Below the pieces are notes generated by a model. That model searched no databases. It saw only the letters and a list, made by a program, of their open reading frames with translations, and had not been told where the DNA came from. This document shows, one piece after another, positions 1,263-29,185 of a stretch of 36,723 bases of DNA; the first letter of the stretch is position 1; the number at the start of each line of letters is the position of its first letter. The stretch is from a virus. Taxonomy: Duplodnaviria > Heunggongvirae > Uroviricota > Caudoviricetes. The stretch lies in IMG/VR virus record IMGVR_UViG_2851976983_000007. One strand, given 5' to 3'. A program made the translations under genes and the position numbers.

Positions 1263-2155
1263 CTATTTCCAGTTACAAGCAGCTTGAAGTGGTTTTAGCG
1301 CGTTTGACAGGCCGTTTAAATTGAAAGTTGCACTTACAGGGCTCTCATTATAAGGAGTTATTTTTGTATACATTTTGTTTGAGTTGGCTAGTTTTCGGAT
1401 GAAATCAATGTCATTACCTTTATAAAAAACAGCCTTTGTATCTGTAGATACTAGCCAGTTTCGCTCAACTGCTTTCTGTTTATCAAGACGATAAAGCATG
1501 CTGGTTTGTTCAAGGCCTAAATATACATCCCAACTAAGAAATACTTCGGTTTTCTTTTCTCGGCAAGCTATAAACAGAGTGGGAGTAACCGCTTCTCCAA
1601 ATGGAGTTCTGATATAATCATCACTTTCTAACGATAAAATTACATTTTTCGAATCATCAATTGGCGATGTAGTAATGGATGTGTGCCATTTTCCTACATC
1701 TGTGGCTTTCTCTAATTTTGATTCAGCTTGAACAGCTTTATCCTGTGGGAATAGTTTATCGTAGCAGTTTAGTCTGGCTTCTTTATCATTTTCTGCTCGG
1801 CATTTAGATATCTCAGAAAGATTTGGTTGCTGAGCCTCTGTTGTTACTGGCTTTTCCGTTTTAGATTTTGAGTTTACAGATGGAGTAAATGTTGGAGAAA
1901 AAAACGATCATAACAAGATAAACGTCTGTCATCATCTTTCTCATCAGGGCATTGATCTCTGCTTTCGAATTTTTCAGCAACTTTCGTTCGAGTCGGTTGT
2001 ATTGACTTATCGTAACAAGAAAGTCTGTCTTTATTATTTTCTATTGCTCGGCACTGGAGTACTGCATTGAAGTTATTATGTTCAGTTGCTGCGTGAACAG
2101 GCAGTACACTAATTGATATAAATGATGCACCTATAGAAAAAATTATATTTTTCAT
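1263..2155 (-). pseudogene. Secreted Cys-repeat protein gene, reading frame broken at an A7 (minus-strand T7) homopolymer near 1898-1904; N-terminal part 1874-2155 carries a signal peptide, C-terminal part continues in another frame to 1263
   Basis: ORF 1874..2155 starts MKNIIFSIGASFISISVLPVHA; my manual translation shows the 1263..1499 frame is open upstream to a stop at about 1908 with no ATG; motif C-R-A-x-E-N-x-K-x-R-L-x-C-Y-D-K occurs three times across both frames; one extra T would fuse them. Confidence 0.5.
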
Positions 2156-2159
2156 TTTG

Positions 2160-2492
2160 TTATCCTTTTGGTTTAGTAAGAAATACTAAAATTCCGATAA
2201 TGATATCGCCAATAACCCATAAACTTCCAATGGTAATTAAACCTAAGCCTGTACCAATAACTGCACCGGCTTTTTCGGCATCGGATGTAGCATTATTTAT
2301 TATTTCACTAGTGCCTCCCAGTCCAACTAAAAGCGTATAGATCATAAAAATATTAAATAATATAAATATCCACTTAATGAGCTTTCCAAAAAATGAACGC
2401 TTAAGTTTTTTTATTTGTTTACCGCAAGCAGGGCAATACAATGCTGAATCGCTCACCTCTTTCTGGCATTCAGGACATTTGATTAATGCCAT
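2160..2492 (-). CDS. Zinc-ribbon (CPECx13CPACG) membrane protein, function unknown
   Basis: 110-aa ORF; N-terminal CxxC...CxxC followed by two hydrophobic helices; strong SD AAGGAGG about 9 nt upstream of ATG; low GC. Confidence 0.55.
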   Translation of the reverse strand: MALIKCPECQKEVSDSALYCPACGKQIKKLKRSFFGKLIKWIFILFNIFMIYTLLVGLGGTSEIINNATSDAEKAGAVIGTGLGLITIGSLWVIGDIIIGILVFLTKPKG

Positions 2493-2753
2493 GTAATCCG
2501 CCTCCTTTGGATCAATACGAGTTGATATTTGTTACAAAACATTTTGATTTTATCAGATTTTTTTTTATTGATAAGTGTCAATTGATTAGCTGGTATAGAG
2601 TGAGACATATAGAAGGGCAGATCTGTATCAGTAGTGATGCAAAAATCCCACAGTTTCATGGAATTTTTGCATTTAGAGCCGTGAGATAGGGTGCCTTATC
2701 GACCTTACCCTGGCAACCGATTGACGGGGGATTACTCCCCCGTCGCGGTTTCC

Positions 2754-2894
2754 TTACTGCTTACACTGTAAGAACGCCGCAAACTCCGCTCCCCAGAAAC
2801 TCATCCGTATTTCGCACAGCGAACCGTGCAACATCCAGATGATGAGGATTACCGTCACGCAGAACGTGATGGCTGTAAGCGATTTTTGCGACAT
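2754..2894 (-). CDS. Hok/Gef-family type I toxin-like small membrane peptide (46 aa)
   Basis: Manual translation MSQKSLTAITFCVTVILIIWMLHGSLCEIRMSFWGAEFAAFLQCKQ: TM helix then SLCEIR...AAFLxC pattern as in HokA/HokC; AGGAG upstream; GC-rich hairpin GACGGGGGA-GTAA-TCCCCCGTC just downstream (about 2717-2738); below the 60-aa cutoff of the ORF track. Confidence 0.6.
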   Translation of the reverse strand: MSQKSLTAITFCVTVILIIWMLHGSLCEIRMSFWGAEFAAFLQCKQ

Positions 2895-3084
2895 AGCACT
2901 TGCTCCTTTTCCGGAGAGGCGCTAACCTTTCACTTGCTTAGGGTAGACGGTTAGGGCCTCGGTTAAACAAAAGTGTTTTCCGGGGCCTTTCCACATCTGG
3001 CCTTCGGGTATTCCCTCCGACCATCAGCCGAAAGGCACCCGCGCGTAATCTATCGCTTTTTTGTTACTCCGGCAATTCTGCTTG

Positions 3085-3345
3085 TTAATTCTGAGGTAAA
3101 GGCAAACTCATCTGATTGTTTCCCCTGTGTGAAGCTGGTAGCTCATGCCACGGGATACCTTCTGAAGAGTGAACGCCGGAGGCGTGTTTCGATGTGAATT
3201 TATGGAAAGCTTCCAGTGTTGAGAAGCATACGCCGCATTCCAGATTGTTACACTGGTAATACTTTTGCCGCACGGTGTTTGAATCATTTTCCGGACGACT
3301 TGTGCGGATACGGGCAGATGCGCCACAAAGCGGACAACGGAACAT
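3085..3345 (-). CDS. ogr: Ogr-like zinc-finger late-gene transcription activator
   Basis: MFRCPLCGASARIRTSR...YYQCNNLECG resembles P2 Ogr MFHCPLC...HQCQNVNC; strong SD AGGGAGG; located beside D as in P2. Confidence 0.8.
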   Translation of the reverse strand: MFRCPLCGASARIRTSRPENDSNTVRQKYYQCNNLECGVCFSTLEAFHKFTSKHASGVHSSEGIPWHELPASHRGNNQMSLPLPQN

Positions 3346-3536
3346 AGCGACCTCCCTTAACGTGGTGTTGCCGCTATTCTAGATTGTACGATCCCTAATT
3401 CCAACTAACAGCTCGCTCTGTGCGAAGAGTGAAAATTGAACTTTCAATAGTTGTTGAACTTCCATACATCCAATGTGAAAATTCATACGTTCATAATAGT
3501 TAAAATTTAAAATATTGTATATCAGGTGAATAAAGC

Positions 3537-4559
3537 ATGGGAAGAGATATAACGCTGTACCCTAAAAAAGCAACTAGAAACGAACTTAAAAATTACCTTG
3601 AAAATTTAGGTTTTAAAAGGTGTAAACATTTGTGGGAATGGCCCCAAGGAACGTTGAATTACTCTTGGTTTGATGATACGGACTTCAAATCTACAGATGG
3701 AGTTTCGGCTGATATATATCCTGTTTCAAATGACGAATTACACATATCTGGTAATAAATGGGCATTGCATGTGCGTAATTTATATAGCGCTAGTTGGCAT
3801 GATGTAAAAATGCTTAATGATGTTCTAAAAGGCGCAAGGAGTCTTTTTGGTGGAACACTTATAGGTGATTATGGGAAAAATAGGTACGCTCCTCTATGGA
3901 AGGATTCTAGTAGTCCGATCAGTCGTGGCATTTCTTCAATATTTAATCATGTCCATCATGAGATTTCCGCTGTTAAACATGCCTTACCTGAACCTTCTAT
4001 TAAATTAAACCTACCGGAAGATGGCGGCTTATCCGAATACTTTGATTACATGCAATGTATGGATCCCAGTAGAGTTATATATAATGGATTAGTACCTTTT
4101 GCGGTTGCTATGTTTGAATACTTTTTCTCTAGAGCTTTTCAAATACTTATAAAGTACGATCCTTTCGCAATAGCAAAAAGAACATCGTATAAGCAAAAAG
4201 TTGATTTTGATATTCTGCTTGAGATAGAGAAAGGAAATATTTCAATAGAAAGTGTTATTGCAAGAAATTACACTTTTCAAAACTTAACCCACCTAAACAA
4301 AGCATATAAAGAGTGGCTGGATATAGATGTGAGAGCGATTCTTTATAAGAAAAAAAGAATTGGAAAATCAGTTGATTTTCTTGAGAATCGAATTTCTGAA
4401 ATCATACAATATAGACATGGGATAGTTCATCACTTTGAGTTGGATAGGACCTTAAATCGGGATGGATATATTCATATATTAGATGCGATAGAAAAAAGCA
4501 TAATTGAATTTATCCATTACATAGAAGGCAAATACAAATTTAAATTAAATGCGTATTAA
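3537..4559 (+). CDS. Low-GC cargo protein (340 aa), unknown function; C-terminal helical region with R-x4-H (QYRHGIVHH) suggests a HEPN-like domain; candidate abortive-infection/defence gene
   Basis: Strongly AT-rich ORF inserted between ogr and D on the opposite strand; own AT-rich upstream region with short direct repeats (GTGAAAATT x2, AATAGTT x2) and a downstream hairpin; no ATPase or nuclease motif I can recognise. Confidence 0.7.
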   Translation: MGRDITLYPKKATRNELKNYLENLGFKRCKHLWEWPQGTLNYSWFDDTDFKSTDGVSADIYPVSNDELHISGNKWALHVRNLYSASWHDVKMLNDVLKGARSLFGGTLIGDYGKNRYAPLWKDSSSPISRGISSIFNHVHHEISAVKHALPEPSIKLNLPEDGGLSEYFDYMQCMDPSRVIYNGLVPFAVAMFEYFFSRAFQILIKYDPFAIAKRTSYKQKVDFDILLEIEKGNISIESVIARNYTFQNLTHLNKAYKEWLDIDVRAILYKKKRIGKSVDFLENRISEIIQYRHGIVHHFELDRTLNRDGYIHILDAIEKSIIEFIHYIEGKYKFKLNAY

Positions 4560-4587
4560 GCAATCAACCTTACATAGGGATGACAAA

Positions 4588-4626
4588 GTCCGCTTCTGAC
4601 ACGGAGCGGACCGTCGTTTATGTTTA
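4588..4626 (+). terminator. Intrinsic terminator-like hairpin (GTCCGCT...AGCGGAC) followed by T-rich tract, downstream of the cargo gene
   Basis: Read from sequence; 7-bp stem, 10-nt loop, then CGTCGTTTATGTTT. Confidence 0.45.
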
Positions 4627-4679
4627 ATTCTATACTGTAAACTTGCCAGTTTAAGTTTGAGCTAATATGTCTAAGTTGC

Positions 4680-5789
4680 TCACTCTGTTTCTGCTATCCA
4701 TTCCGGGATTTTTGCCTCAAGCTCAAGCTGTGTGGTAAAGCCGCTGTTATCAATGGTGTGCTCGGCTTTCGCAATAATCCAGTCCTGATTATCAATCTCG
4801 CTTTTAAATCCTGTTACCGTGCCATGCATTTCGGGGTAGAGTTCTGCACGTCCACGCACCAGCGTGATGGAAAACGATGCGGCTCCGCGTTGTAGCTGCT
4901 GCCACTTTGCCGCCGCTGCGCGTCTTGCTGCCTGCTCGTTCTGATAAGTCTTGCGTAACACAAACACATTGCCTTCCGCGCCTTCCATATAATCACCTTC
5001 ACGGCTGCTGCTTTTCTCCTTTTTGGGTTTTGGCGGTTTGCGGCGTTTCACGCTGACTTTTTTCTTTTTCCCGTAATTAAGATCAAGCCAGTAAGCGCGT
5101 ACCCCCGTATACGCCTCGCGGTCAGCAATGCGGAACTGATGGCGATCGCCGCTGCTGCGTGTGATGGCGAACGATGGCAACGGCTGGCCCTGTGCGTTTA
5201 CGCCACCGCCGGGCATGATGAATAACAGATTACCGCTTTTTACCGTGGTGATTGCGCCCAGCATTTCCGCCATGCGCGTAAGGAAGGACATGTCGCTTTC
5301 TTCAGTCTGGTCGGCGTGGTCGATTTCGATATCCATCAGCATTTCGCTGATTTGCGGTTTCAGGCCGTACCGATGAGCGATGGCGGATACCACACGTTCA
5401 ACGGTCACATCATGCCAGGACGCCTCACGTTTAACATTAAATTCATCCCGAAAATCTGCGCTTCTGGCTGAAACAGTCAGCCTGTCCGGCGGTCCTTCGT
5501 GAGCGATTTCATCAACAATGTAAGTGCCTTTTTCTGTCAGCGGTTCCCCTTTCCAGCCAATGAGAACCGTCAGACGCGCGCCCCGTGGCGGTAGCTGCAA
5601 CTGGCCATCGGCATCATCCAGCGTGATGGTGAGCTGGTCCGCCTCAAATCCCCGGTTGTCGGTCAGTGACAGGCTCATCAGGCGTTCTGCCACGCCGGAC
5701 AGCGTTTTACCCTCGGCGAGAATATCAAAATCCGGCATTTTCACGGGGTCTGTGCCCTGACTGAGCAATTGCATGGTGGTGTCGGTCAT
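4680..5789 (-). CDS. D: Tail protein D (GPD family)
   Basis: Segments ITRSSGDRHQFRIADREAYTGVRAYW, SFSITLVRGRAELY and SGFTTQLELE parallel P2 gpD; start taken at MTDTTMQLL preceded by GGAGGGAG (track ORF runs on to 5921). Confidence 0.85.
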   Translation of the reverse strand: MTDTTMQLLSQGTDPVKMPDFDILAEGKTLSGVAERLMSLSLTDNRGFEADQLTITLDDADGQLQLPPRGARLTVLIGWKGEPLTEKGTYIVDEIAHEGPPDRLTVSARSADFRDEFNVKREASWHDVTVERVVSAIAHRYGLKPQISEMLMDIEIDHADQTEESDMSFLTRMAEMLGAITTVKSGNLLFIMPGGGVNAQGQPLPSFAITRSSGDRHQFRIADREAYTGVRAYWLDLNYGKKKKVSVKRRKPPKPKKEKSSSREGDYMEGAEGNVFVLRKTYQNEQAARRAAAAKWQQLQRGAASFSITLVRGRAELYPEMHGTVTGFKSEIDNQDWIIAKAEHTIDNSGFTTQLELEAKIPEWIAETE

Positions 5790-5946
5790 CTGCTCCCTCC
5801 CTGTGTGGCATGGTCGCATGTGCGTGCGGAGGGGGTTACTGCTTTTTGTTGTCGCCGTGGCGGGAGAATGGCGCAGGGGTGAGATTACGCGCGTGGTGGG
5901 TGATGATTGTTGCCGAATCATTTAACGGATACAAGGGGCTGAAGCT

Positions 5947-7131
5947 ATGAGTGAAACTCGTTTTCATGGTGCCCGTGTTACGGAAAATACCGACCTGGTA
6001 ACAGCGATTAACGATGTTGATTCCAGCGTTATCGGTATCGTGGCAACGGCGGATGATGCGGACGCGAAGCTGTTCCCGCTGAACAAGCCCACACTGCTGA
6101 CCCGCGTCAATGACGTGCTGGGAAAATGCGGGACAACGGGGACGCTTTATCGTGCGCTTAAGGCCATCGCAGACCAGGTGAGCACAAAGGTGATCGTCGT
6201 TCGCGTGGCTGAACACAAAGAAGAAGACGGAAAGACGCAGGATCAACTGGTTATCGGTGGTTCTGAGGATGACGGCAGCTATACGGGGATGTATGCGCTG
6301 CTTGTTGCAGAGCAGGATGAAAGCATCGGATACCGTCCGCGTATTCTGGCCGCGCCGGAGCTGGACACGGAGGCTGTAACAAAATCCCTGTGCGTGATTG
6401 CAGGTAAACTGCGCGCGTTTGTGTATGCCTCATGTCACGGCTGTAACACGATGGCTGAGGCGATTACCTACCGCCAGAAATTCAACGAACGTGAGGTGAT
6501 GCTCTTATGGCCGGACTTCATCGCCTACAACCCGAAAAGTGGCAAAAACGAAACGTTCCCCGCGCCTGCCTATGCGTGCGGCCTTCGTGCGTACATTGAC
6601 CATGAGCAGGGATGGCACAAATCACTGTCCAACGTTCCGGTTAAAAATGTGCTGGGGATGTCGAGGCATGTGTTCTGGTCGTTACAGGCCGAAGACAGTG
6701 ATGCCAACAGCCTCAACAACAAAGAAATCACGACCATTATTCGTCGCAACGGGTTCCGCTTCTGGGGCAACCGCACACCGGAAACGAACGCCTACATCTT
6801 TGAGGTGTATACCCGAACCGCACAGGTGCTGGCTGATTCAATTGCGGAAGCGCAGTTTGAAACCATCGACAGTCCACTGACGCCTGCGAACGTGAAGGAT
6901 GTTATCAGTGCCATCAGGGCAAAACTGGATTCACTGGTTACTGCCGGGAAACTGATTGGCGCGGAGTGCTGGTATGACGTGGTGGATAACAGCACCACGG
7001 ATTTACGTCAGGGGCGTGTGCGTATTCGCTACAAATATACGCCCGTTCCGCCACTGGAAGACATGGAGCTTTACCAGACGTTTACTGATGAATACTTTGA
7101 ACCCGCATTTGCGGTTCTGGGAGGTGCCTGA
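5947..7131 (+). CDS. FI: Contractile tail sheath protein FI
   Basis: 394 aa, position and size match P2 FI; followed directly by tube gene. Confidence 0.9.
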   Translation: MSETRFHGARVTENTDLVTAINDVDSSVIGIVATADDADAKLFPLNKPTLLTRVNDVLGKCGTTGTLYRALKAIADQVSTKVIVVRVAEHKEEDGKTQDQLVIGGSEDDGSYTGMYALLVAEQDESIGYRPRILAAPELDTEAVTKSLCVIAGKLRAFVYASCHGCNTMAEAITYRQKFNEREVMLLWPDFIAYNPKSGKNETFPAPAYACGLRAYIDHEQGWHKSLSNVPVKNVLGMSRHVFWSLQAEDSDANSLNNKEITTIIRRNGFRFWGNRTPETNAYIFEVYTRTAQVLADSIAEAQFETIDSPLTPANVKDVISAIRAKLDSLVTAGKLIGAECWYDVVDNSTTDLRQGRVRIRYKYTPVPPLEDMELYQTFTDEYFEPAFAVLGGA

Positions 7132-7643
7132 TGGCTGTGCCAAAACATCTTCGCTTTTTTACGCTGTTTGTGGATGGTGAAAACGAAGTGGGTAAGGTGA
7201 CGTCCGTCACTCTGCCCAAACTGACGCGCAAAACCGACAGCTACCGGGGTGGTGGCATGATGGGGGCGGTAAGTATTGATCTCGGTCTGGACGACTCTGC
7301 GCTTGATGCGAGCTTTGTCATGGGGGGCGCAGTTCGTGCGCTGTTCCTTAAGTATGGCGGCACGATTGACGGCACGCTGCTGCGTTTTGCGGGTGAATAC
7401 TACACCGATGCAGAAAGCGACCTGTATGAAGTCGAAATGCGCGGACGTGTGACGGAAATTGATATGGGGGAAGCCAAACAGGGCGAAGCCACATCACACA
7501 CTTACGCCATTAAAAACACCTACTACAAGCTGAGTGTTAACGATCGCCCGTTGTGGGAGATTGACCTGCTGAACTTCATTTACCGGAAGGACGGCAAGGA
7601 CATTGTGTCCGATCGCATCCGTTCCGCGCTTGGGCTTGGCTGA
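7131..7643 (+). CDS. FII: Tail tube protein FII
   Basis: 170 aa, ATGA overlap with FI stop; P2 FII-like size and position. Confidence 0.9.
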   Translation: MAVPKHLRFFTLFVDGENEVGKVTSVTLPKLTRKTDSYRGGGMMGAVSIDLGLDDSALDASFVMGGAVRALFLKYGGTIDGTLLRFAGEYYTDAESDLYEVEMRGRVTEIDMGEAKQGEATSHTYAIKNTYYKLSVNDRPLWEIDLLNFIYRKDGKDIVSDRIRSALGLG

Positions 7644-7697
7644 TAAGTAATATGCAGGCGGCGCAGTGCGTCGCCTCTGACTGAAAGGAGTTTCCTG

Positions 7698-8063
7698 ATG
7701 AAAGAGACGAAAAACATCGATACCGAAAACACGGTAGTTACTGACACTGTGAAAGAAACCAGTGAGCGTGGCGTAAAACTTACCCAACCAATTGAGCGAG
7801 GCGGCGAAAAAATCACGTATGTGGAGATCACCGGGGCTATTGAGCAGGCTGGATCTCTGCGAGATTTGTCGCTGTCTGATGTGCTGAATCTGAAAGCGGA
7901 ATCCATGTTTACGCTGCTGTCACGCGTGACATCACCGCGACTGGATGAAGTGACGATCAAAAAAATGGCATCCCGTGACTTTATTCAGTTATGTGTGGTT
8001 GCCGTAAATTTTTTGAGCGGTGCGGACTCTGGCGGGAAGAACGAACAGGCGACGGAAGCCTGA
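7698..8063 (+). CDS. E: Tail assembly chaperone E
   Basis: 121 aa upstream of the tape-measure gene; contains slippery heptamer. Confidence 0.85.
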   Translation: MKETKNIDTENTVVTDTVKETSERGVKLTQPIERGGEKITYVEITGAIEQAGSLRDLSLSDVLNLKAESMFTLLSRVTSPRLDEVTIKKMASRDFIQLCVVAVNFLSGADSGGKNEQATEA

Positions 8064-8227
8064 TCACGGTTGTGTGCTTTGAGCACATAGAAGACTTTGT
8101 GGCAGATATTGCCGTTATTTTTAACTGGTCGCCCGCCGAAATCTTCATGATGACGCCCGGCGAAGTGGTTAGCTGGCGTGAGCGGGCGGCACTTCGCAGC
8201 GGGAATGCAGACAATGAAGACTCTTGA
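7698..8227 (+). CDS. E+E' frameshift product: frame 0 to about 8015, then -1 frame to 8227
   Basis: TTTTTTG slippery heptamer at about 8009-8015 in frame T-TTT-TTG; the -1 frame ORF (track 7991..8227) runs on to overlap the T start; conserved chaperone frameshift in P2-like and other tailed phages. Confidence 0.7.
8009..8015 (+). promoter_or_regulatory. Programmed -1 ribosomal frameshift slippery site TTTTTTG
   Basis: Seen in sequence; position relative to E and the -1 ORF. Confidence 0.65.
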
Positions 8228-11021
8228 TATCCGGGTCGCTTTCAGCGCCGTTGACAGGCTGACCCGGCCTGCCGAAAACGCCCGCCGCCTGATGGGGCAG
8301 TTTGGTGACTCCATCCAGCGAACGCAGGGGGCGATCAAAAATCTCGAGCGTCAGGCGCGATCATTTGAGCGCGCCCGCGACGCTGTCAGTAAAGCGGATG
8401 CTGGCATATTGAAAGCACGACGCCAGCTTAACGCCCTTAATCAGTTACAACGCACGGGTACAGTGCTCAGCGAAAAACAACAAAAGCTGATGCAGCAGTT
8501 AAGCACCCGGCTTGAACACCTGAATGAATCGCGCACACGTGAAATTCAGAAAATGCGGGAGCTTGGCGGAGAGCTGAAACGCCACGGCATTTCCCTGACA
8601 GGCAGCGATAACACCATCCAGCAGGCCATCAGACGCACCGAACAGTACAACAACCAGCTTGAACGCGAACGGCAGGCGCTTGCGCGTGTAACGCGGGCGC
8701 GTGAGCGGTATTCGCGCGCGCAGGAAACTGCGGGAAAACTGAAAACAGGTGGTGCGCTGGCAATTGGTGCGGCAGCGGCTGGCGGCTATGCTGCCGGGCG
8801 TTTTTTGCAGCCTGCGATCGGGTTCGGGAAAGAGATGTCCCGCGTTCAGGCACTGACGCGAATCGACAAAAACAGCCCGCAGTTTAAGGCGCTGCGTGAG
8901 CAGGCGTTAAAACTTGGCTCTGAAACACAGTTTACTGCGAGTGATGCCGCCAGTGGGCAGAGCTTTCTGGCAATGGCTGGTTTTACTCCGCAGGCCATTC
9001 AGGCCGCATTGCCCGGTGTTCTTAATATGGCGCTGGCAGGTGGCGTCGAACTCGGCGAGACGGCTGATATAGGCTCCAATATCCTCACACAATTCAACCT
9101 GACAGCCGATCAAATGGACCGTGTTGGCGATACGCTGACAGCAGCATTCACCCGGACCAATACTGATTTACGCGCGCTGGGCGAAACCATGAAGTATACC
9201 GGTCCGGTTGCCGCAAAACTTGGTATCAGTCTTGAAGAAGCGGCAGCCATGGCCGGGATGCTTGCCAATAATGGTCTTCGTGGAAGCGATGCTGGTACAG
9301 CCATGCGCGCAAGTCTGTCCCGCCTTGCATCACCGCCAAAAGCTGCGGCTGATGCGCTGAAAGAGCTGGGGGTGTCAGTTGCTGACGCCAGAGGCAAAAT
9401 GCGCCCGATGGAGGATGTGCTGCTTGATCTCTATAAGGCGACACAAAAATACGGACAGGTGGACCAGGTCTCCTTCTTCAAGGACATCGCCGGAGAAGAG
9501 GCGTTCGTTGGTTTGCAGACGCTTGTTGCGGCGGCTGGTTCAGGAGAGCTGCAAAAACTGACCAGAGAATTGCAGGGGGCAAGGGGAGAGGCCGATCGCG
9601 TTGCAAAAGTAATGGCCGATAATCTTGATGGGGACCTGAAAAATCTCGACAGCGCATGGGAAGGTCTTCGTATTCGCATCAGTGATCTGGTTGACGGTCC
9701 GCTGCGTTCTGTCACGCAGTGGCTCACGCGGGTGCTTGAAAAAATCACCTCGCTGGCGCAGGCCCATCCGGTACTGACGCGCCAGCTACTGATAGCAGGC
9801 GGTGCGTTGCTGGCAATGACTGCAACGGTTGGCTCGTTGTCGCTGGCTATTGGTGTGCTTGCTGGCCCGCTGGCAAAACTGCGTCTTGGCTTTTCCCTCC
9901 TGACCGGTTCAATGAATGCTGTCAGACTCCTGCCAGCACTATGGGGAATGGTGACGGGTTCCGTTTCGTTACTGGGGGGCGCTATCGGGGCGTTGTTCAG
10001 TCCGGTCGGTCTTATCGTGGCTGCGCTTGCCGGAGCTGCCGTTCTCATCTGGAAATACTGGGATCCCATCAGGGCATTTTTTGCCGGGGTGTTCAGCGGG
10101 ATTATGGAAAGGCTGACCCCGTTGCGCGAAACCTTTGAACGGTTTGGTCCTGTTTTTGACGCAATCGGAAGCGGGATCAGCCAGGTGTTTAACTGGTTTA
10201 AATCGCTGTTGTCACCGATGGAGTCCAGCAAGGAAACGCTGGATAAATGTACCAGTGCTGGCGAGATATTCGGTAACGTTCTTGGCGGTGCGTTACAACT
10301 TGTTTTGACACCTGCAAAAATGCTACTGGATACGCTGGCGTGGATACTTGAAAAACTTGGCGTCCTTCCGGATGAAGCGGAAAGGGCGCGCAAGAAAATC
10401 GAAGACGCACAGCGTGAGGCCATTCTTCAGGACAAGGTTGCCTTGCTTCAGGGGGACCTGGCGAAAATCAATCCGCCGAAGCCTGTGGAAAATGGCAATG
10501 GCACCGGAGGTGATAACCCCAAAGACAATAAACCGCTCACAGACAGCAATACCGGTACGCTGCGCAGACTCAGCAAAATTGCTGATAACACAGGTAAGCT
10601 GGTTGAGGAGACGAAAAAACGCATTGGCCCCGGCGATATTGTCTTTAAGAACCTGCCCCGAGCACTTGCTGTTCGTGGGGAGTGGCAGGAGCGGAAGATT
10701 GCGCAGGTCAGTAAGCCTGCCCCCGCAATTAATATCACACCCGTGGTCTCGGCTCCGCTGCCTCCGGCGCTGGTCCCTGTTGTTGCGGCCAGCTCCCGCC
10801 CGGTGGCGGAGGCTATACGATCTCCAGTGGCATCAGTTCCTGTAACTTCCCGTAACCGGGAGCCTGTTGCCTCCGGATTTGGTGGTGAAATTCATGTTCA
10901 TCTGCATAACGTTGTTACGCAGAATCCCCGCGAACTGGCGAAACTGGTCGGTGAAATGGTCAGGGCAGAAATGGAACGGCGCGCCCGTGCCGGGCGTGGC
11001 AGTTTTTACGATAAAGATTGA
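8205..11021 (+). CDS. T: Tail tape measure protein T
   Basis: About 940 aa, helical N-terminus and hydrophobic middle typical of tape-measure proteins; start uncertain (GTG 8178, ATG 8205 or 8214). Confidence 0.85.
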   Translation: MQTMKTLDIRVAFSAVDRLTRPAENARRLMGQFGDSIQRTQGAIKNLERQARSFERARDAVSKADAGILKARRQLNALNQLQRTGTVLSEKQQKLMQQLSTRLEHLNESRTREIQKMRELGGELKRHGISLTGSDNTIQQAIRRTEQYNNQLERERQALARVTRARERYSRAQETAGKLKTGGALAIGAAAAGGYAAGRFLQPAIGFGKEMSRVQALTRIDKNSPQFKALREQALKLGSETQFTASDAASGQSFLAMAGFTPQAIQAALPGVLNMALAGGVELGETADIGSNILTQFNLTADQMDRVGDTLTAAFTRTNTDLRALGETMKYTGPVAAKLGISLEEAAAMAGMLANNGLRGSDAGTAMRASLSRLASPPKAAADALKELGVSVADARGKMRPMEDVLLDLYKATQKYGQVDQVSFFKDIAGEEAFVGLQTLVAAAGSGELQKLTRELQGARGEADRVAKVMADNLDGDLKNLDSAWEGLRIRISDLVDGPLRSVTQWLTRVLEKITSLAQAHPVLTRQLLIAGGALLAMTATVGSLSLAIGVLAGPLAKLRLGFSLLTGSMNAVRLLPALWGMVTGSVSLLGGAIGALFSPVGLIVAALAGAAVLIWKYWDPIRAFFAGVFSGIMERLTPLRETFERFGPVFDAIGSGISQVFNWFKSLLSPMESSKETLDKCTSAGEIFGNVLGGALQLVLTPAKMLLDTLAWILEKLGVLPDEAERARKKIEDAQREAILQDKVALLQGDLAKINPPKPVENGNGTGGDNPKDNKPLTDSNTGTLRRLSKIADNTGKLVEETKKRIGPGDIVFKNLPRALAVRGEWQERKIAQVSKPAPAINITPVVSAPLPPALVPVVAASSRPVAEAIRSPVASVPVTSRNREPVASGFGGEIHVHLHNVVTQNPRELAKLVGEMVRAEMERRARAGRGSFYDKD

Positions 11022-11027
11022 GGAGTC

Positions 11028-11522
11028 ATGGCCATGATGATGATCTACGGCATGTTTGTTTTTGAGCTGCGCACGCTGCCGCATCAGCAGTTACAGCAAA
11101 ACAAAAGCTGGCGGCATGTGAAAAATGAACGCGTTAACCGTTCAGCAAGCTGGCAGTATATCGGTGCAGGTGATGATCGCATCGTTCTTTCTGGTGTGCT
11201 TTATCCTGAAATTACAGGTGGCGAAGTGTCGCTGTCGCTGCTGACCACGCAGGCGTATACAGGACGACCCTGGCCTTTGATTGATGGCGTCGGGCAGATT
11301 TACGGCATGTATGTCCTGACCGGAACGAATACGACCCGTTCCGAGTTTGATCGCTACGGTAAGGCGAAAAAGATAGAATTTTCACTGACCCTTGAACGCT
11401 GTGATGAGGATTTGCGGGAGCGCCTGCAATCCTCATCGTTCAGCGATATGCTGTCCGGCTTCAAAGATAAAGTGACATCATCTCTTAACAGCGCGGTCAG
11501 TTCAGTTAAAGGGCTGTTCTGA
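11028..11522 (+). CDS. U: Tail protein U
   Basis: 164 aa, GMFVFELRTLPHQ... resembles P2 gpU N-terminus; follows T. Confidence 0.85.
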   Translation: MAMMMIYGMFVFELRTLPHQQLQQNKSWRHVKNERVNRSASWQYIGAGDDRIVLSGVLYPEITGGEVSLSLLTTQAYTGRPWPLIDGVGQIYGMYVLTGTNTTRSEFDRYGKAKKIEFSLTLERCDEDLRERLQSSSFSDMLSGFKDKVTSSLNSAVSSVKGLF

Positions 11523-11533
11523 TTTAACACAAA

Positions 11534-11570
11534 AACCGCTAATGACCAGATTAGCGGTTATTTTGTTTCC
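11534..11570. terminator. Hairpin AACCGCTAAT-(6)-ATTAGCGGTT followed by ATTTTGTTT; terminator after U, overlapping the 3' end of the invertase ORF
   Basis: Seen in sequence. Confidence 0.5.
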
Positions 11571-12145
11571 TGACTCTTCTCAATTGTTCCGCTTGATTCT
11601 CCTGCGGGGTGGTAACGATAAATCGTCGATATACCAATGCCGTAAATTATTGCCAGTTGTTTTCTGTCGTGCCCGTTTTTGATCAGCCTTGCTATTTGCT
11701 CATGCTGTTCTTTTGTCAGCTTCGGGCGACGTCCGCCTGTGCGCCCTCGTGCGCGCGCTGCAGCCAGTCCGGCCAGTGTACGTTCAACAATTAATTCACG
11801 TTCCATTTCAGCCAGGGCACCCATCACGTGGAAGAAAAAACGCCCCATTGGAGAAGATGTATCTATGCTGTCGGTCAGACTGCGAAAATTAATCCCTCGC
11901 TCCCGTAGTTCCCCGACGAGAGAAATCAGATGTTTCATGCTTCGCCCGAGGCGATCCAGTTTCCAGACAACCAGCGTGTCGCCTTTTTGAAGGCGCTTTA
12001 AAGCGCGTTTTAATCCCGGTCGGTCTGTCTTTGTCCCGCTTAATTTATCTTCAAATATTTGTTCGCATCCTGCACAAACAAGAGCGTTTCGTTGCAGGTC
12101 TGTATTCTGGTCATTTGTTGATACGCGAACATAGCCAATAAGCAT
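11558..12145 (-). CDS. Serine DNA invertase, Hin/Gin/Pin/Cin family
   Basis: MLIGYVRVSTNDQNTDLQRNAL...TLVVWKLDRLGRS...SPMGRFFFHVMGALAEMERELI...GRRPKLT: near-canonical Hin-family sequence with catalytic Ser in RVST; start at second ATG, which has GGGGG spacing. Confidence 0.9.
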   Translation of the reverse strand: MLIGYVRVSTNDQNTDLQRNALVCAGCEQIFEDKLSGTKTDRPGLKRALKRLQKGDTLVVWKLDRLGRSMKHLISLVGELRERGINFRSLTDSIDTSSPMGRFFFHVMGALAEMERELIVERTLAGLAAARARGRTGGRRPKLTKEQHEQIARLIKNGHDRKQLAIIYGIGISTIYRYHPAGESSGTIEKSQETK

Positions 12146-25265: not shown

Positions 25266-26311
25266 TGAGCAGAAAAAATAAAAAAGTGCGCATGAGTTCA
25301 CGCATTGATCTCGCTGATGCGCTCAGGAAAGAATCATCGCTCAGTGCATTCACATTTGATGGTCCTTATCGCCTGACCGGGCATGACCTGCTGGACAATA
25401 TGTACTGTGCTGATAACGGGCGATGGTATGAAACCCCGGTGGACTGGTACGGTCTGGCAAGAGCCGCCCGGCAAACGTCCTGGCATCAGTCTGCGCTTTA
25501 CTTTAAGCGCAATGTATTGCTCGGTTGCTACATCCCGCACCCGCTGCTTTCCCGGCAGGATTTCTCGGCGCTGGCGCTGGACTGGTTTGTGTTCGGTAAC
25601 GCATTCCTTGAGCTTCGGAGCAATATGCTCGGCGAACCACTTAAATTACGGCACGCACTGGCGAAATACATGCGACGCGGAAGCGATCTTGAATCATGGT
25701 GGTATGTGCAGGATGGCAAGGACGCGTTTCAGTTTCGCCCTGGCAAAGTGTGCCACCTGATGAATCCGGACATTAACCAGGAAATTTACGGCATGCCGGA
25801 ATATCTTGGCGCATTACTCTCGGCCAGCCTGTCTCATTCGGCGGACATGTTCAGAAAACTGTATTACGACAATGGATCCCACGCCGGGTGCATCATCTAC
25901 ATCGGTGCAGCGCAGGTAAACCGCGAAAGCATGGACTCCCTGAAAGAAACGTTACAGGGTGCGCGTGGTGGTGGTGCGTTTAAAAACGTGCTCATCCATG
26001 CGCCCAACGGGGGCAAAGAGGGGGTGCAAATTTTGCCGTTCCAGCAGATCACCGCAAAGGATGAGTTCATGAATGTTAAGGCGGCATCCCGTGATGATGT
26101 GCTGGCTGCGCACCGCGTTCCGCCGCAACTGATGGGGGCGATGCCGGGCGAAAAAAGTGCGTTTGGTGATGTGGAGAAGGCCGCGCGGGTTTACGCAATT
26201 AACGAGCTGATGCCTGTCATGGAGGCCATGAAGCACATCAATGACTGGCTTGGCGAAGAGGTGATCCGCTTTAACCCTTACGCACTGTTAGACACCCAGC
26301 CCACATCCTGA
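25265..26311 (+). CDS. Q: Portal protein Q
   Basis: 348 aa; ATGA overlap with P stop. Confidence 0.9.
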   Translation: MSRKNKKVRMSSRIDLADALRKESSLSAFTFDGPYRLTGHDLLDNMYCADNGRWYETPVDWYGLARAARQTSWHQSALYFKRNVLLGCYIPHPLLSRQDFSALALDWFVFGNAFLELRSNMLGEPLKLRHALAKYMRRGSDLESWWYVQDGKDAFQFRPGKVCHLMNPDINQEIYGMPEYLGALLSASLSHSADMFRKLYYDNGSHAGCIIYIGAAQVNRESMDSLKETLQGARGGGAFKNVLIHAPNGGKEGVQILPFQQITAKDEFMNVKAASRDDVLAAHRVPPQLMGAMPGEKSAFGDVEKAARVYAINELMPVMEAMKHINDWLGEEVIRFNPYALLDTQPTS

Positions 26312-26337
26312 CGCGCTTCGCTTGTCTGCTGCTTCGC

Positions 26338-26362
26338 CGGGGCATAAAAAATTTATGCCCCG
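26338..26362 (+). terminator. Hairpin GGGGCATAAA-AA-TTTATGCCCC downstream of Q
   Basis: Seen in sequence; no clear U-tract. Confidence 0.35.
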
Positions 26363-26767
26363 ACTCTCCAGCTCCTGTATCAGTCAGATAATTTCACGAC
26401 GCTTTCCTGCTGATTGCCATTATCGACAGTCAGACTCTTACGCAATCCCACCGCGTTGACTGCATGTTCTCGCCGTCTCAGTGCGATTTTGACGGCCTTA
26501 CCTTTCACCCCATCAAATCAAAAGCCCTCACGTCTTTTTCACGCTCAGCGTGAGAAATACAGCCATTCTGTTGTATCTCTGCGACATCGTTCAGGGAATG
26601 CTATTTACCCCCTGAAACGCGGGCTGTTCCCCCGTCACCTGCGCGCAGAAAAAACGCGTTTTTTTGTGCACGTACGGATCCTTGACGGATCCAGCCACCA
26701 CGCGGGCCGGAAGTACAAAAAGTCGTTCAAAAAAATTGTGCAAACTTGTGCACTATCGTGCAAACAA

Positions 26768-26795
26768 AAAAAGCGCCTTATCGGCGCTTCAAAAG
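26768..26795 (-). terminator. Intrinsic terminator (AAGCGCC-GATAA-GGCGCTT followed by T-run on the minus strand)
   Basis: Seen in sequence directly downstream of the 89-aa minus-strand ORF. Confidence 0.45.
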
Positions 26796-26797
26796 TA

Positions 26798-27067
26798 TCA
26801 ATTGTTGCTGTGTATTAATCGCCAACCACGAACATATGCTTCATAGGCATCTCTGTGCCTTACAGTTCCAGCCTGGCTAAACGGAATGTTAGCTAAAACT
26901 AAATCATTCTGAGCCATAGCGCGTCCTTCAAGCGCATCTTTTATGCCTAGCTCAAAAGCACAGGCAGCGCATTTGTGCCGACCTTCTTGTCCTTGATATT
27001 CAGGGAGAGACAGAAATGTTGGATTATAACGATGAGGGTTCTTGCAAATACCTGTTTTAGCCCGCAC
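26798..27067 (-). CDS. Hypothetical 89-aa protein (GTG start), low-GC hotspot cargo
   Basis: GAGGT SD 9 nt upstream of GTG; terminator immediately downstream; no recognisable family. Confidence 0.4.
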   Translation of the reverse strand: MRAKTGICKNPHRYNPTFLSLPEYQGQEGRHKCAACAFELGIKDALEGRAMAQNDLVLANIPFSQAGTVRHRDAYEAYVRGWRLIHSNN

Positions 27068-27092
27068 TTTATTTACCTCATAGGAAAAATAT

Positions 27093-27237
27093 GCGTGCCT
27101 TTACAGAGGTGCGTGTAAGCAATAAAATATACGACGCACATTTTGATTTACTTCGGAAGGCACGCATATCAGGTTAAGTGAGTCCGACCGAGTTTTACGC
27201 CCCAATAGTTGCTGCTATTGGGGCGTTTTGCATGGAC
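27093..27237 (+). ncRNA. Candidate structured small RNA or regulatory element: 13-bp long-range inverted repeat (ATATGCGTGCCTT ... AAGGCACGCATAT) followed by an intrinsic terminator (CGCCCCAATAG-TTGCTG-CTATTGGGGCG-TTTTG)
   Basis: Seen in sequence; lies antisense to the upstream region of the 89-aa gene; no promoter verified. Confidence 0.3.
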
Positions 27238-27431
27238 AATGCCGCGCAATTATCTTGTCGCTCACAATGCGAACGATCTTACAAAAAGGCACATTACTGT
27301 CAAGATAATTGATCGTTTTAATCGATAGATAATAGACAATCTATTTGTTTAACAGATCGATTATTGAAGTAAGTGTGCCAAGTGGAATGATACTGTCTCT
27401 ATAAACGTGAGCATTTTTCGCGCAGATGCTT

Positions 27432-27743
27432 TTACTCAGGAAATAACGCCCGGATATTCCCAGCCATCTGGCTGGTTATCTTAGCCACTGGTGCAGACTG
27501 TGCTTCAAACTTTTTTGAGCTGATTTGTGTCACAGGTAACATCTCATCATCAGCCCATGCGGCCAGTCGGTAAGCCTCTGCCGGATTCGTCTTCAGAAGT
27601 GCCAGCCCGGCCAGAAAAGCCACGCGTTGGCCGCTTTTGCGGGCTTCTGGTGTAAGGCTGTCCAGCCAGGCGCATGCTTCTCCTTCGTTCTTGACGGCAG
27701 CTGGCTTCAGATAGAAACTTATCCGTCTGGTTGGTGTTGTCAT
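27432..27743 (-). CDS. parR: ParR-like centromere-binding protein (type II partition adaptor)
   Basis: ISFYLKPAAVKNEGEACAWLDSLTPEARKSGQRVAFLAGLALLKTNP parallels R1 ParR IAFKLNPDVNQTDKIVCDTLDSIPQGERSRLNRAALTAGLALYRQNP; AAGGAG SD; start 5 nt after the parM-like stop; track ORF extends to 27878. Confidence 0.75.
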   Translation of the reverse strand: MTTPTRRISFYLKPAAVKNEGEACAWLDSLTPEARKSGQRVAFLAGLALLKTNPAEAYRLAAWADDEMLPVTQISSKKFEAQSAPVAKITSQMAGNIRALFPE

Positions 27744-27747
27744 TGGT

Positions 27748-28707
27748 TTACTCCTTGTCCATTGCGTACAGCCCATTAACCAGAGCAAACTGTGGCACCC
27801 CGTCCGCGATGAAAGTCGCATTAACTCCGCAGGCTTCGCGGATAGCGGGTGCCACAATCTCCGCCCCGCCACCGACAACCATCACCCGCCCGTAACCCGA
27901 AAAACCCGCCAGCGCGCGGATCACGCGTTGTTTCAGTGTTTCTTCCTTTTCACGAATAACCGCCATCAGGCTGTCGTAATGCGCGTCATTGTGGATGTGC
28001 TGGCGCAGCCAGGCTTCATCATGGCGATGTTCGATAATGGTATTGGCGATGTGGTGACTGGTACGCATACCGTTAGTGGCCATCACCGACAGTACGGCAT
28101 CGGCCATCAGGGAAACGCCTACGTGTGGATCGCAAAACACCTGGCTGATACCTGCCAGTTGTCCCTGAACCTTTGCCACATCCAGCGTGGTTCCGCCTAA
28201 ATCCACAATCAGCAGGGATTCAAACGGACTCATGTCAGCCAGTGCTTTAAAGCCAGCCGGAATGGATTCAGGCATAACCCGTACGTTACGGATAGTGAAT
28301 GCTTCGCCGTTCTGGTACTCCACCGGGCGCATGACGTTCGCTTTTTTGCGGTTGATGTTGGCCATGTCCGGCTGTGCGTTTGTGTCGAAATATTCGCTCA
28401 GTGGCAGGGTGACAACCACATCCACTTCCTGTGGTGTGATGCCTGATTTGACCAGCGCGTGATGAATGGCAATGACATTCACATCGCTGTACTGGTATTG
28501 CGTGTCGGTCGTCTGGACAAAGCGATCGCTGACCGGATCAAAACCATAGCGCACGCCATCAAGCATGTAGTTCGCGGGCTGCGTGCCACCGAACGGCGCA
28601 GACCATTCCGACTTGAAGCTGTTCGGGCTGATGGCGTTGCGGCGTTCGCCGTTCTCAGTCCATGCCAGCTTGATGTTGGTGGAGCCGTCATCGATACAAA
28701 TTTTCAT
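27748..28707 (-). CDS. parM: ParM/StbA-like actin-family ATPase (type II partition NTPase)
   Basis: MKICIDDGSTNIKLAW...YSDVNVIAIHHAL...VMPESIPAGF...LLIVDLGGTTLDV...GYGRVMVVGGGAE matches R1 ParM along its length. Confidence 0.9.
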   Translation of the reverse strand: MKICIDDGSTNIKLAWTENGERRNAISPNSFKSEWSAPFGGTQPANYMLDGVRYGFDPVSDRFVQTTDTQYQYSDVNVIAIHHALVKSGITPQEVDVVVTLPLSEYFDTNAQPDMANINRKKANVMRPVEYQNGEAFTIRNVRVMPESIPAGFKALADMSPFESLLIVDLGGTTLDVAKVQGQLAGISQVFCDPHVGVSLMADAVLSVMATNGMRTSHHIANTIIEHRHDEAWLRQHIHNDAHYDSLMAVIREKEETLKQRVIRALAGFSGYGRVMVVGGGAEIVAPAIREACGVNATFIADGVPQFALVNGLYAMDKE

Positions 28708-28736
28708 GTCGCTTTTCCTTATGTTGATTAATTAAT

Positions 28737-28850
28737 CGCTTACGGGATTCTGAAATCCCGTTTTTGCCTGTTTTATGCGCGCTTCATATATCGCGGCGCG
28801 TTTTTTGCTCATTTACGGGATTTGTGAATCCCGTTTCTGTCTGTTTTTTG
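28737..28850. promoter_or_regulatory. Two direct copies (about 73 bp apart) of a 20-bp palindrome ACGGGATT-N4-AATCCCGT each followed by a T-rich tract, upstream of the parM-like gene; candidate parC-like centromere/operator
   Basis: Seen in sequence at about 28742-28761 and 28815-28834; architecture resembles ParR sites flanking the par promoter. Confidence 0.5.
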
Positions 28851-28987
28851 TTTCCACTGGTCAGGCCACCCCGCAGCAGGTCTGCTTTGCGGCGGGCGCG
28901 TTCAGTGGTTTCACTGATTCTCTGTGCGTGCTCTGCGTCGCGGATGGCGCGCAGCATGTCAGAAAGCACGGTAACGGGTGTTTTCAT
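28784..28987 (-). CDS. Hypothetical small protein (67 aa) between A and the par module; its 3' end overlaps the palindromic repeats
   Basis: ORF only; weak SD. Confidence 0.3.
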   Translation of the reverse strand: MKTPVTVLSDMLRAIRDAEHAQRISETTERARRKADLLRGGLTSGNKKQTETGFTNPVNEQKTRRDI

Positions 28988-29185
28988 GGTGTTCTGGTCC
29001 TGCTGAAGTGTGGATGCCAGGCGTGCGGCGGCTTCGGGGTCTGATGCCCCCAGCTGTTCCAGATAGCTGGCGACCGGGTTATGGCGGATCTCCGTGCTGC
29101 TTACGCCGTGGTTACGGCTCAGGCGCTGCCAGAGCTGCGTGATCCGGCTGTCCGGTCGGGTATCCGGTTTGCGTACAATTTCAAA

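Follow-up and report, generated by a model that had tools for sequence, protein, structure and literature searches.

A mobile two-domain HEPN gene in the D-ogr spacer of a P2-like Escherichia coli prophage, a candidate single-protein abortive-infection determinant

Among solo HEPN nucleases, compact abortive-infection proteins that regulate themselves are beginning to be recognized. HepS, published in 2026, is a solo HEPN protein encoded by the Salmonella prophage Gifsy-1; it stays inactive as a tetramer until a siphovirus tail-tip protein triggers it to cleave transfer RNA (tRNA) anticodon loops (PMC13043305). PD-T4-5 is a single-gene distant relative of AbiF/D with an abortive-infection phenotype (10.1101/2022.05.12.491691). 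The RiboL-PSP-HEPN group is a computational definition, based on proteins that carry an endoRNase L-PSP fusion or have a link to ParB, and was placed near AbiD/AbiF by Anantharaman et al. in 2013 (PMC3710099); no experimental work on any member of its Pfam family, PF18735, was found in the searched literature. Published mining of P2-like hotspots has centered on the Q-A (old/tin) and Z/fun loci (PMC9122126; 10.1101/2022.05.12.491691), and a 2026 survey reported lesser hotspots inside tail genes and close to int (PMC13586616). Here, we describe a cassette with one gene, encoding a 340-amino-acid (aa) protein with a predicted HEPN domain, inserted between the genes D and ogr of a P2-like E. coli prophage in the IMG/VR record IMGVR_UViG_2851976983_000007 (36,723 nucleotides, hereafter the window, numbered from its first letter). 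We consider it moderately probable that the cassette is a mobile, self-contained accessory gene ('moron') in a P2-like cargo hotspot, and that its product is a single-protein HEPN endoribonuclease protecting the lysogen by abortive infection.

The window matched the E. coli chromosome, with 99.96-100% identity to enterotoxigenic E. coli (ETEC) strain B7A and its relatives, and contains a P2-like prophage of the Peduoviridae 'Gemsvirus' lineage that adjoins flk. The record of Escherichia phage 500465-2 (NC_049343) holds the host genes flk, fabB, and mnmC, and it was rejected as an independent isolate because it represents the same prophage with its flanks. The cassette, the elements within it, and the two flanking genes are as follows.

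3085-3345, minus strand: ogr, late-gene activator and left flank of the hotspot (Ogr_Delta, E 5e-14; RefSeq annotation)
3382-4673, no strand assigned: inserted cassette of 1,292 bp, delimited by BLAST against an empty site (L006) and otherwise-occupied sites (L003-L005) and by the GC profile
3443-3482, plus strand: candidate promoter, with the palindrome TTCAA-N6-TTGAA (3443-3458), -35 TTGAAC (3454-3459), TG (3474-3475), and -10 GAAAAT (3477-3482)
3524-3529, plus strand: putative Shine-Dalgarno sequence AGGTGA, 7 nt ahead of the ATG, read from the sequence
3537-4559, plus strand: gene of the 340-aa two-domain protein, stop codon included, from the list of open reading frames (ORFs)
3537-3911, plus strand: uncharacterized N-terminal alpha+beta domain, residues 1-125, with near-invariant G55, D89, N94, G105, G106, and G113
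4062-4541, plus strand: predicted HEPN domain of the RiboL-PSP-HEPN type, residues about 176-335, with invariant E194, F247, R293, and H298
4413-4430, plus strand: R-x4-H catalytic-type motif R293-H-G-I-V-H298 (R293 and H298 in 79 of 79 aligned relatives, H294 in 94%)
4588-4611, plus strand: terminator-like hairpin within the cassette, with a 9-bp stem and six G-C pairs, from a hairpin scan
4680-5921, minus strand: D, tail/baseplate hub and right flank (Phage_GPD and phrog_52, E 2e-166; annotation)

The backbone D-ogr spacer measures 42 bp and is interrupted here by the cassette. The unoccupied junction of strain MSI001 reads GCTATTCTAAGTTGCTCAC, which fixes the insert at 3382-4673; it starts 6 nt after the D stop codon and stops 36 nt ahead of the ogr ATG, and TCTA is found at both junctions (3378-3381 and 4670-4673). 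The GC content was 0.31-0.39 over positions 3300-4650 compared with 0.50-0.59 in ogr and D, and the cassette gene itself has an atypical GC content of 0.336 (0.34 against 0.53) and a GC content of 0.264 at third codon positions. No further ORF of at least 50 aa was identified in the D-ogr interval. A preliminary description of this DNA had reported a roughly 1.3-kb AT-rich insert with one 340-aa gene that runs opposite to its neighbors, has an AT-rich upstream region of its own, and is followed by a hairpin, and this account holds in all its parts, the promoter-like block and the hairpin both lying inside the insert. The candidate promoter was read off the sequence and scores under the threshold of the consensus scan, and CGTCGTTTAT follows directly after the hairpin. 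Within Enterobacterales, about 110 nt upstream move with the ORF, comprising TTCAA-N6-TTGAA, a -35-like TTGAA(C/T), and a TG-extended A-rich -10; the promoter-like block is kept with the gene in Hafnia, Mixta, Pantoea, and a second P2-like phage, and the hairpin stem is conserved 3' of the gene in Mixta and in an IMG/VR locus (L034). Since the upstream block, and in some loci the hairpin, move with the gene, the mobile unit is read as a putative promoter, the ORF, and a putative terminator.

No tandem repeats or repeat families were found in the cassette, nor any Rfam RNA, the sole Rfam match (sok) lying outside it, and the conserved upstream block gave no supported RNA consensus structure (-3.7 kcal/mol, no helpful covariation). 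On these three grounds, an upstream RNA antitoxin or riboswitch was set aside for now. A protein antitoxin was ruled out, as the cassette has no room for one and the gene has no conserved neighbor.

The occupancy of the junction was surveyed with a 450-bp probe across the empty site, which matched 1,200 E. coli genomes. The junction was uninterrupted in 720 of these, in line with the premise of the preliminary description that in P2 ogr follows D directly, and in the remaining ones the best place covers part of the probe, usually the ogr half. The cassette gene was present in 65 of 5,426 complete E. coli genomes (1.2%), always single-copy, in the D-ogr slot every time, and never on a plasmid; the gene is thus not conserved at this position in all related prophages, the slot being mostly empty. 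The proposal that the junction is a variable hotspot was likewise upheld by the sister prophages sampled, whose D-ogr slots include the loci L003, L017, L018, and L019. At the same point, these hold a GmrSD restriction endonuclease domain protein (type IV restriction enzyme family; RefSeq annotation), a DUF2971 protein corresponding to the PADLOC candidate PDC-S31 (E 5e-27), a DUF3800 protein, two hypothetical proteins of about 220 aa, IS600, or an IS3/group II intron nest. The locus is therefore empty or occupied at one fixed point between conserved core genes, and its occupants vary, as is characteristic of prophage cargo ('morons'), which makes the D-ogr spacer of P2-like prophages a cargo slot, or hotspot. 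Among the individual cargos, that of enteropathogenic E. coli (EPEC) E2348/69 is a 221-aa protein whose homologues match REase_II-like weakly (E about 0.01-0.03), and another E. coli prophage carries a 389-aa DUF3800 protein with no PADLOC match.

The old, tin, and Z/fun hotspots of P2 likewise hold AT-rich, non-essential cargo between conserved P2 genes that is exchanged among relatives (PMC9122126; 10.1101/2024.10.15.618418; PMC13586616). In contrast to the P2 hotspots mined experimentally (Q-A and G-FI), the slot of the cassette is the D-ogr spacer, and the cassette protein is unrelated to Old, Tin, and Fun. The cargo presented here appears neither in the published hotspot mining nor in the 2026 survey (PMC13586616). 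With GmrSD and several uncharacterized genes that lay outside the mining of experimental surveys centered on Q-A and Z/fun, the slot represents a cheap source of further candidates.

The left junction also bears on ogr. A promoter-like site, TTGGAA-17-TAGAAT (3376-3404, minus strand), lies across it, with the -10 in the conserved ogr-proximal backbone and the -35 within the insert. As the alternative cargos were all inserted at one and the same point, each cassette may provide a fresh -35 for ogr. The cassette also cuts ogr off from any read-through from D.

Regarding the protein, Pfam gave one match, HEPN_RiboL-PSP (PF18735), over residues 181-329, with a below-threshold score of 22.5-23.6 bits (E 5e-5 to 1.2e-4), and UniRef labels the exact protein 'RiboL-PSP-HEPN domain-containing protein', so that the statement in the preliminary description that no family could be recognized does not stand. 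One search found 295 homologues, an exhaustive one yielded 284 clusters at 50% identity (E<=1e-3), and the full-length two-domain layout (about 320-360 aa) persists to about 22% identity. PF18735 is precomputed on most of 120 listed homologues and was matched by 54 of 79 diverse relatives (E<=0.01; best 4e-10). In the alignment of these 79 sequences, which reaches about 20% identity, the sole invariant positions are E194, F247, R293, and H298, followed by the near-invariant H294, N183, and Q248; R293 and H298 are the only invariant arginine and histidine. The segment QYRHGIVHH (residues 291-299) had been proposed to fit the HEPN signature. This was sustained by the invariance of R293 and H298 and by the match of the region to the Pfam HEPN model, but not by the bare R-x4-6-H pattern, which occurs at least once in 89% of shuffles of the cassette protein and was for that reason dropped as standalone evidence; the motif evidence used here is accordingly the invariance of the two residues. 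The AlphaFold2 (AF2) model of the 340-aa protein reached a predicted local distance difference test (pLDDT) score of 95.9, and its C-terminal part is an all-alpha helical bundle like solved HEPN domains. According to the model, the C-terminal domain has a HEPN fold, with the family-invariant R-x4-H plus E194.

The similarity to HEPN proteins was assigned to the C-terminal domain and a similarity to RnlA to the N-terminal one, since residues 1-128, when modeled separately (pLDDT 94), kept fold matches that include RnlA and, among those listed, no HEPN protein. No Pfam family was found for the N-terminal domain, although it is conserved to the same extent as the HEPN domain. Its near-invariant residues suggest no obvious catalytic center, and in its predicted fold it is similar to alpha+beta modules that bind nucleic acids or proteins. 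Sequence-profile searches of the PDB with the close set, the diverse set, and the N-terminal domain alone found nothing, and Foldseek gave no match to the PDB at E<=1e-3, its top entries (the spermine synthase N-domain and BamC) reflecting the generic fold of the N-terminal domain alone. The PHROGs collection gave no informative match for the cassette protein, and the searched literature contained no paper that names WP_000532200 or characterizes its family.

Homologues were located in 36 loci by a species-level genome scan, in which loci were fetched with alignment A1, the diverse alignment A2 being too divergent for this purpose. Gammaproteobacteria, Desulfobacterota, and Bacteroidota, among them the isolate Winogradskyella wichelsiae, have copies with 61-73% identity, and one Patescibacteria metagenome-assembled genome (MAG) and one Kapaibacterium MAG have copies with 61-64%. 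More distant are those of Terriglobales (57%), a cyanobacterium (51%), Paenarthrobacter (41%), and Saccharibacteria and Spirochaetia (33-37%). Most homologues reside in non-phage chromosomal islets or islands in many phyla; IMG/VR holds seven contigs with the gene, and among deposited phage genomes it occurs solely in the prophage-derived record. An 81%-identical copy occupies a Z/fun-type slot of another P2-like phage. Further copies come from a lambdoid prophage of Pantoea, where a SIR2_2 gene is close by, from an AlpA/DUF927 island of Pseudomonas that places the gene next to a UvrD-helicase pair, and from a tmRNA-side island that also carries AbiTii, integrases, and a type I restriction-modification system. 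Others lie directly 3' of an ORF ending in a TaqI_C specificity domain or in small islets between housekeeping genes of Shewanella, Aeromonas, and others. Phage hotspots and defense islands are thus recurrent locations of the gene. It also occurs beside a second, solo RiboL-PSP-HEPN protein. In a metagenomic lineage (locus L012, 6236-6937, and also L013 and L014), a 233-aa solo RiboL-PSP-HEPN protein (PF18735, E 1e-4) precedes the homologue; these loci possibly have a two-HEPN arrangement, which is absent from the E. coli cassette. A protein copy 100% identical to that of E. coli was found on a 4.2-kb contig of the MAG 'Planococcaceae bacterium UBA3378' (L038), and it most likely represents E. 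coli contamination of the MAG and not an occurrence in Firmicutes.

Where the flanking sequence was adequate, in 10 loci, the gene is richer in AT than its surroundings in 9, for example 0.37 against 0.60 GC in Aeromonas and, for the second P2-like phage, 0.34 against 0.61; the weakest contrast, 0.48 against 0.54, was seen in a metagenomic chromosome-scale contig (L027), and one further locus was left out of the comparison because it had too little flank. Among the 107 nearest ORFs of 30 loci, no recurrent partner gene was identified, as no family appeared more than three times. Defense genes or candidates near the gene in these 30 loci comprise Hachiman HamA/HamB (two loci), SIR2_2 (two), PDC-S25 (two), PDC-M23B (two), PDC-S08, and ResIII (two), and transposases were also present.

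When compared to characterized systems, HepS is the closest worked-out precedent for a self-regulated, infection-activated RNase, by functional analogy only. Both are single, prophage-encoded HEPN proteins in an accessory slot, with a canonical R-x4-H and no partner or inhibitor gene. In contrast, HepS homologues are standalone HEPN proteins of less than 250 aa, with the motif R100-H105 and no extra domain, and HepS itself resides in a lambdoid prophage, whereas the cassette protein has 340 aa and an extra conserved domain; it is therefore prophage-borne and partner-less like HepS, but does not share its small standalone format. HepS was not listed in the PDB sequence or structure searches, and it is unconfirmed whether the searched PDB sets include it. 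The nearest phylogenetic analogues are PD-T4-5 and the lactococcal AbiD/AbiF proteins (AbiD, AbiD1, and AbiF; Abi_2, PF07751), which are likewise single-gene HEPN-type abortive-infection determinants on mobile elements. Unlike these, the cassette protein has a different N-terminal domain and no match to Abi_2 (Pfam, E<=0.1) or PADLOC, and Rfam detected no abiF RNA motif in positions 2400-5000. The HEPN toxins RnlA/LsoA (RNase LS) differ in having an NTD-NRD-HEPN architecture and an adjacent antitoxin gene, and no RnlB-type antitoxin accompanies the cassette gene. Because of the missing Abi_2, PADLOC, and abiF matches, the size and architecture unlike those of HepS, and the lack of an RnlB-type antitoxin, the cassette family is, as far as its sequences tell, not a member of the HepS, PD-T4-5, AbiD/AbiF, or RnlA/LsoA groups. 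Its C-terminal domain matches the PF18735 model and contains R-x4-6-H. In contrast to the founders of PF18735, the protein carries the uncharacterized 125-residue alpha+beta partner domain and no L-PSP: there was no L-PSP/YjgF match in the query or the 79 relatives, and no ParB among the neighbors. What was already known is the HEPN family, catalogued computationally; new are the uncharacterized N-terminal domain and the under-explored hotspot, and no solved or studied relative of the protein was found.

The position, composition, and distribution of the gene together with its invariant motif favor defense over the other explanations, the defensive role itself being inferred by analogy with characterized HEPN proteins. 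By the same analogy, the protein would be made in the lysogen from its own promoter and would at first persist as an inactive oligomer whose two R-x4-H motifs fail to pair productively. Some cue arising during infection, sensed via the N-terminal domain or the oligomer interface, could then activate the protein, which would cut RNA metal-independently (tRNA anticodon loops, or messenger or ribosomal RNA) and so halt translation and phage production. Because both domains are at least 60% identical across phyla, the sequences suggest, speculatively, a partner or substrate that is conserved in cells, and not a phage protein that evolves fast. If the proposal is true, the family adds a different solo-HEPN architecture with a new regulatory domain, and its unusually strong conservation may reflect a trigger or target that is itself conserved, as well as ready movement from host to host.

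Several observations weigh against this assignment. The PF18735 score of the query (22.5 bits) is under the gathering threshold of 28.4. The profile search against Pfam and defense models that the preliminary description had proposed delivered a HEPN match on the Pfam side but nothing on the defense side, with zero matches in PADLOC-DB v2 at E<=1, and NCBIfam also gave zero matches for the cassette protein. Several homologues lie among housekeeping genes without a defense neighbor, and the neighbor survey, lacking a matched control, lends qualitative support only. Finally, cross-phylum conservation this high is unusual for arms-race sensors.

A more far-reaching version, which we offer tentatively, holds that the cassette is the first representative of an undescribed, broad-host-range single-protein immunity module in which a new N-terminal alpha+beta sensor gates a RiboL-PSP-type HEPN RNase without an antitoxin and senses a universally conserved consequence of infection, such as the state of the translation apparatus or a conserved RNA, and that D-ogr is a third, unexploited defense hotspot of P2-like phages. 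The idea of a universal trigger derives from the identity of at least 60% in both domains from Enterobacterales to Bacteroidota and Patescibacteria.

The cassette could instead be a selfish toxin or an addiction element that stabilizes the prophage or simply propagates itself and contributes nothing meaningful against phages, in which the HEPN protein is the toxin of a toxin-antitoxin (TA)-like module and the antitoxin is a small RNA or an intramolecular domain. HEPN domains are common as TA toxins (PMC3710099), a distantly related AbiF of Clostridioides difficile is neutralized by a cis-encoded RNA (PMC12373285), and both the upstream block that travels with the gene and its promiscuous spread across phyla, often alone between housekeeping genes, would suit such an element. 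However, the cassette contains no antitoxin ORF, no repeats, and no abiF or other Rfam motif, and its upstream block is without a supported RNA structure. TA and abortive-infection roles are moreover compatible, and the positional association is that of defense cargo, which makes a purely selfish toxin unlikely.

A role in the lytic growth or induction of the P2-like phage itself is a still less likely explanation. The RNase would then serve to shut off host or competitor mRNA, to counter RNA-guided or signal-based immunity, or to exclude P4-type satellites. The gene does lie among late genes, beside the late activator ogr, the insert replaces the region upstream of the ogr -10, so that wiring into late regulation is possible, and phage hotspots carry counter-defense genes too (10.1101/2024.10.15.618418). 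Yet it is transcribed opposite to ogr and D, with a promoter-like element and a terminator-like hairpin of its own, and its homologues are found mostly outside phages, with seven IMG/VR contigs and, among deposited phage genomes, the prophage-derived record alone. A mobile cellular protein for RNA processing or RNA binding without a defense role, for example a stress-responsive RNase or regulator, appears very improbable: the cross-phylum identity, the occurrence as a single gene between metabolic genes in some genomes, and the binding-module-like fold of the N-terminal domain would agree with it, but the patchy distribution (1.2% of E. coli genomes), the marked AT-richness against the flanks in most loci examined, and the prophage-hotspot location with invariant catalytic-type residues are features of an accessory conflict gene and not of a housekeeping one.

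Turning from the abortive-infection candidate to the rest of the prophage, the true start of D is probably near position 5789, since the Phage_GPD and phrog_52 matches begin at residue 43. Immediately outside ogr lie a hok/Gef toxin gene and the sok antitoxin RNA (2754-3040); hok/Gef is annotated in B7A, sok matches Rfam RF01794 with 51.9 bits (E 4e-10), slightly under the gathering score, and hok/sok is kept at this prophage end in many E. coli strains. A second AT-rich stretch (1262-2492, GC 0.31-0.38) is located between hok and the chromosomal flk, with genes for a zinc-ribbon membrane protein and for one resembling TagO/VasI. The TagO-like ORF is broken in the window (1263-1499 and 1874-2155) and forms one 297-aa coding sequence in B7A, where an IS1 that is absent from the window is present in this region. 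The classical Q-A (old/tin) hotspot (26311-29186) holds a few small or medium ORFs here (134, 148, and 319 aa) and shows a GC dip to 0.43.

The tail genes FI, FII, E, T, and U (5947-12145) are on the plus strand and thus inverted with respect to D, ogr, and the V-W-J-I-H genes. The inverted FI-U block ends beside a DNA invertase gene (about 11558-12145, minus strand), a layout common to all sister prophages examined, which agrees with the remark in a preprint that invertases of the Z/fun locus go with inversion of neighboring genes. The tail-fiber/assembly segment at 12245-13146 matches B7A solely in reverse orientation, at 88% identity, which would fit either a host-range segment that inverts or tail-fiber cassettes paired in inverted orientation next to the invertase gene.

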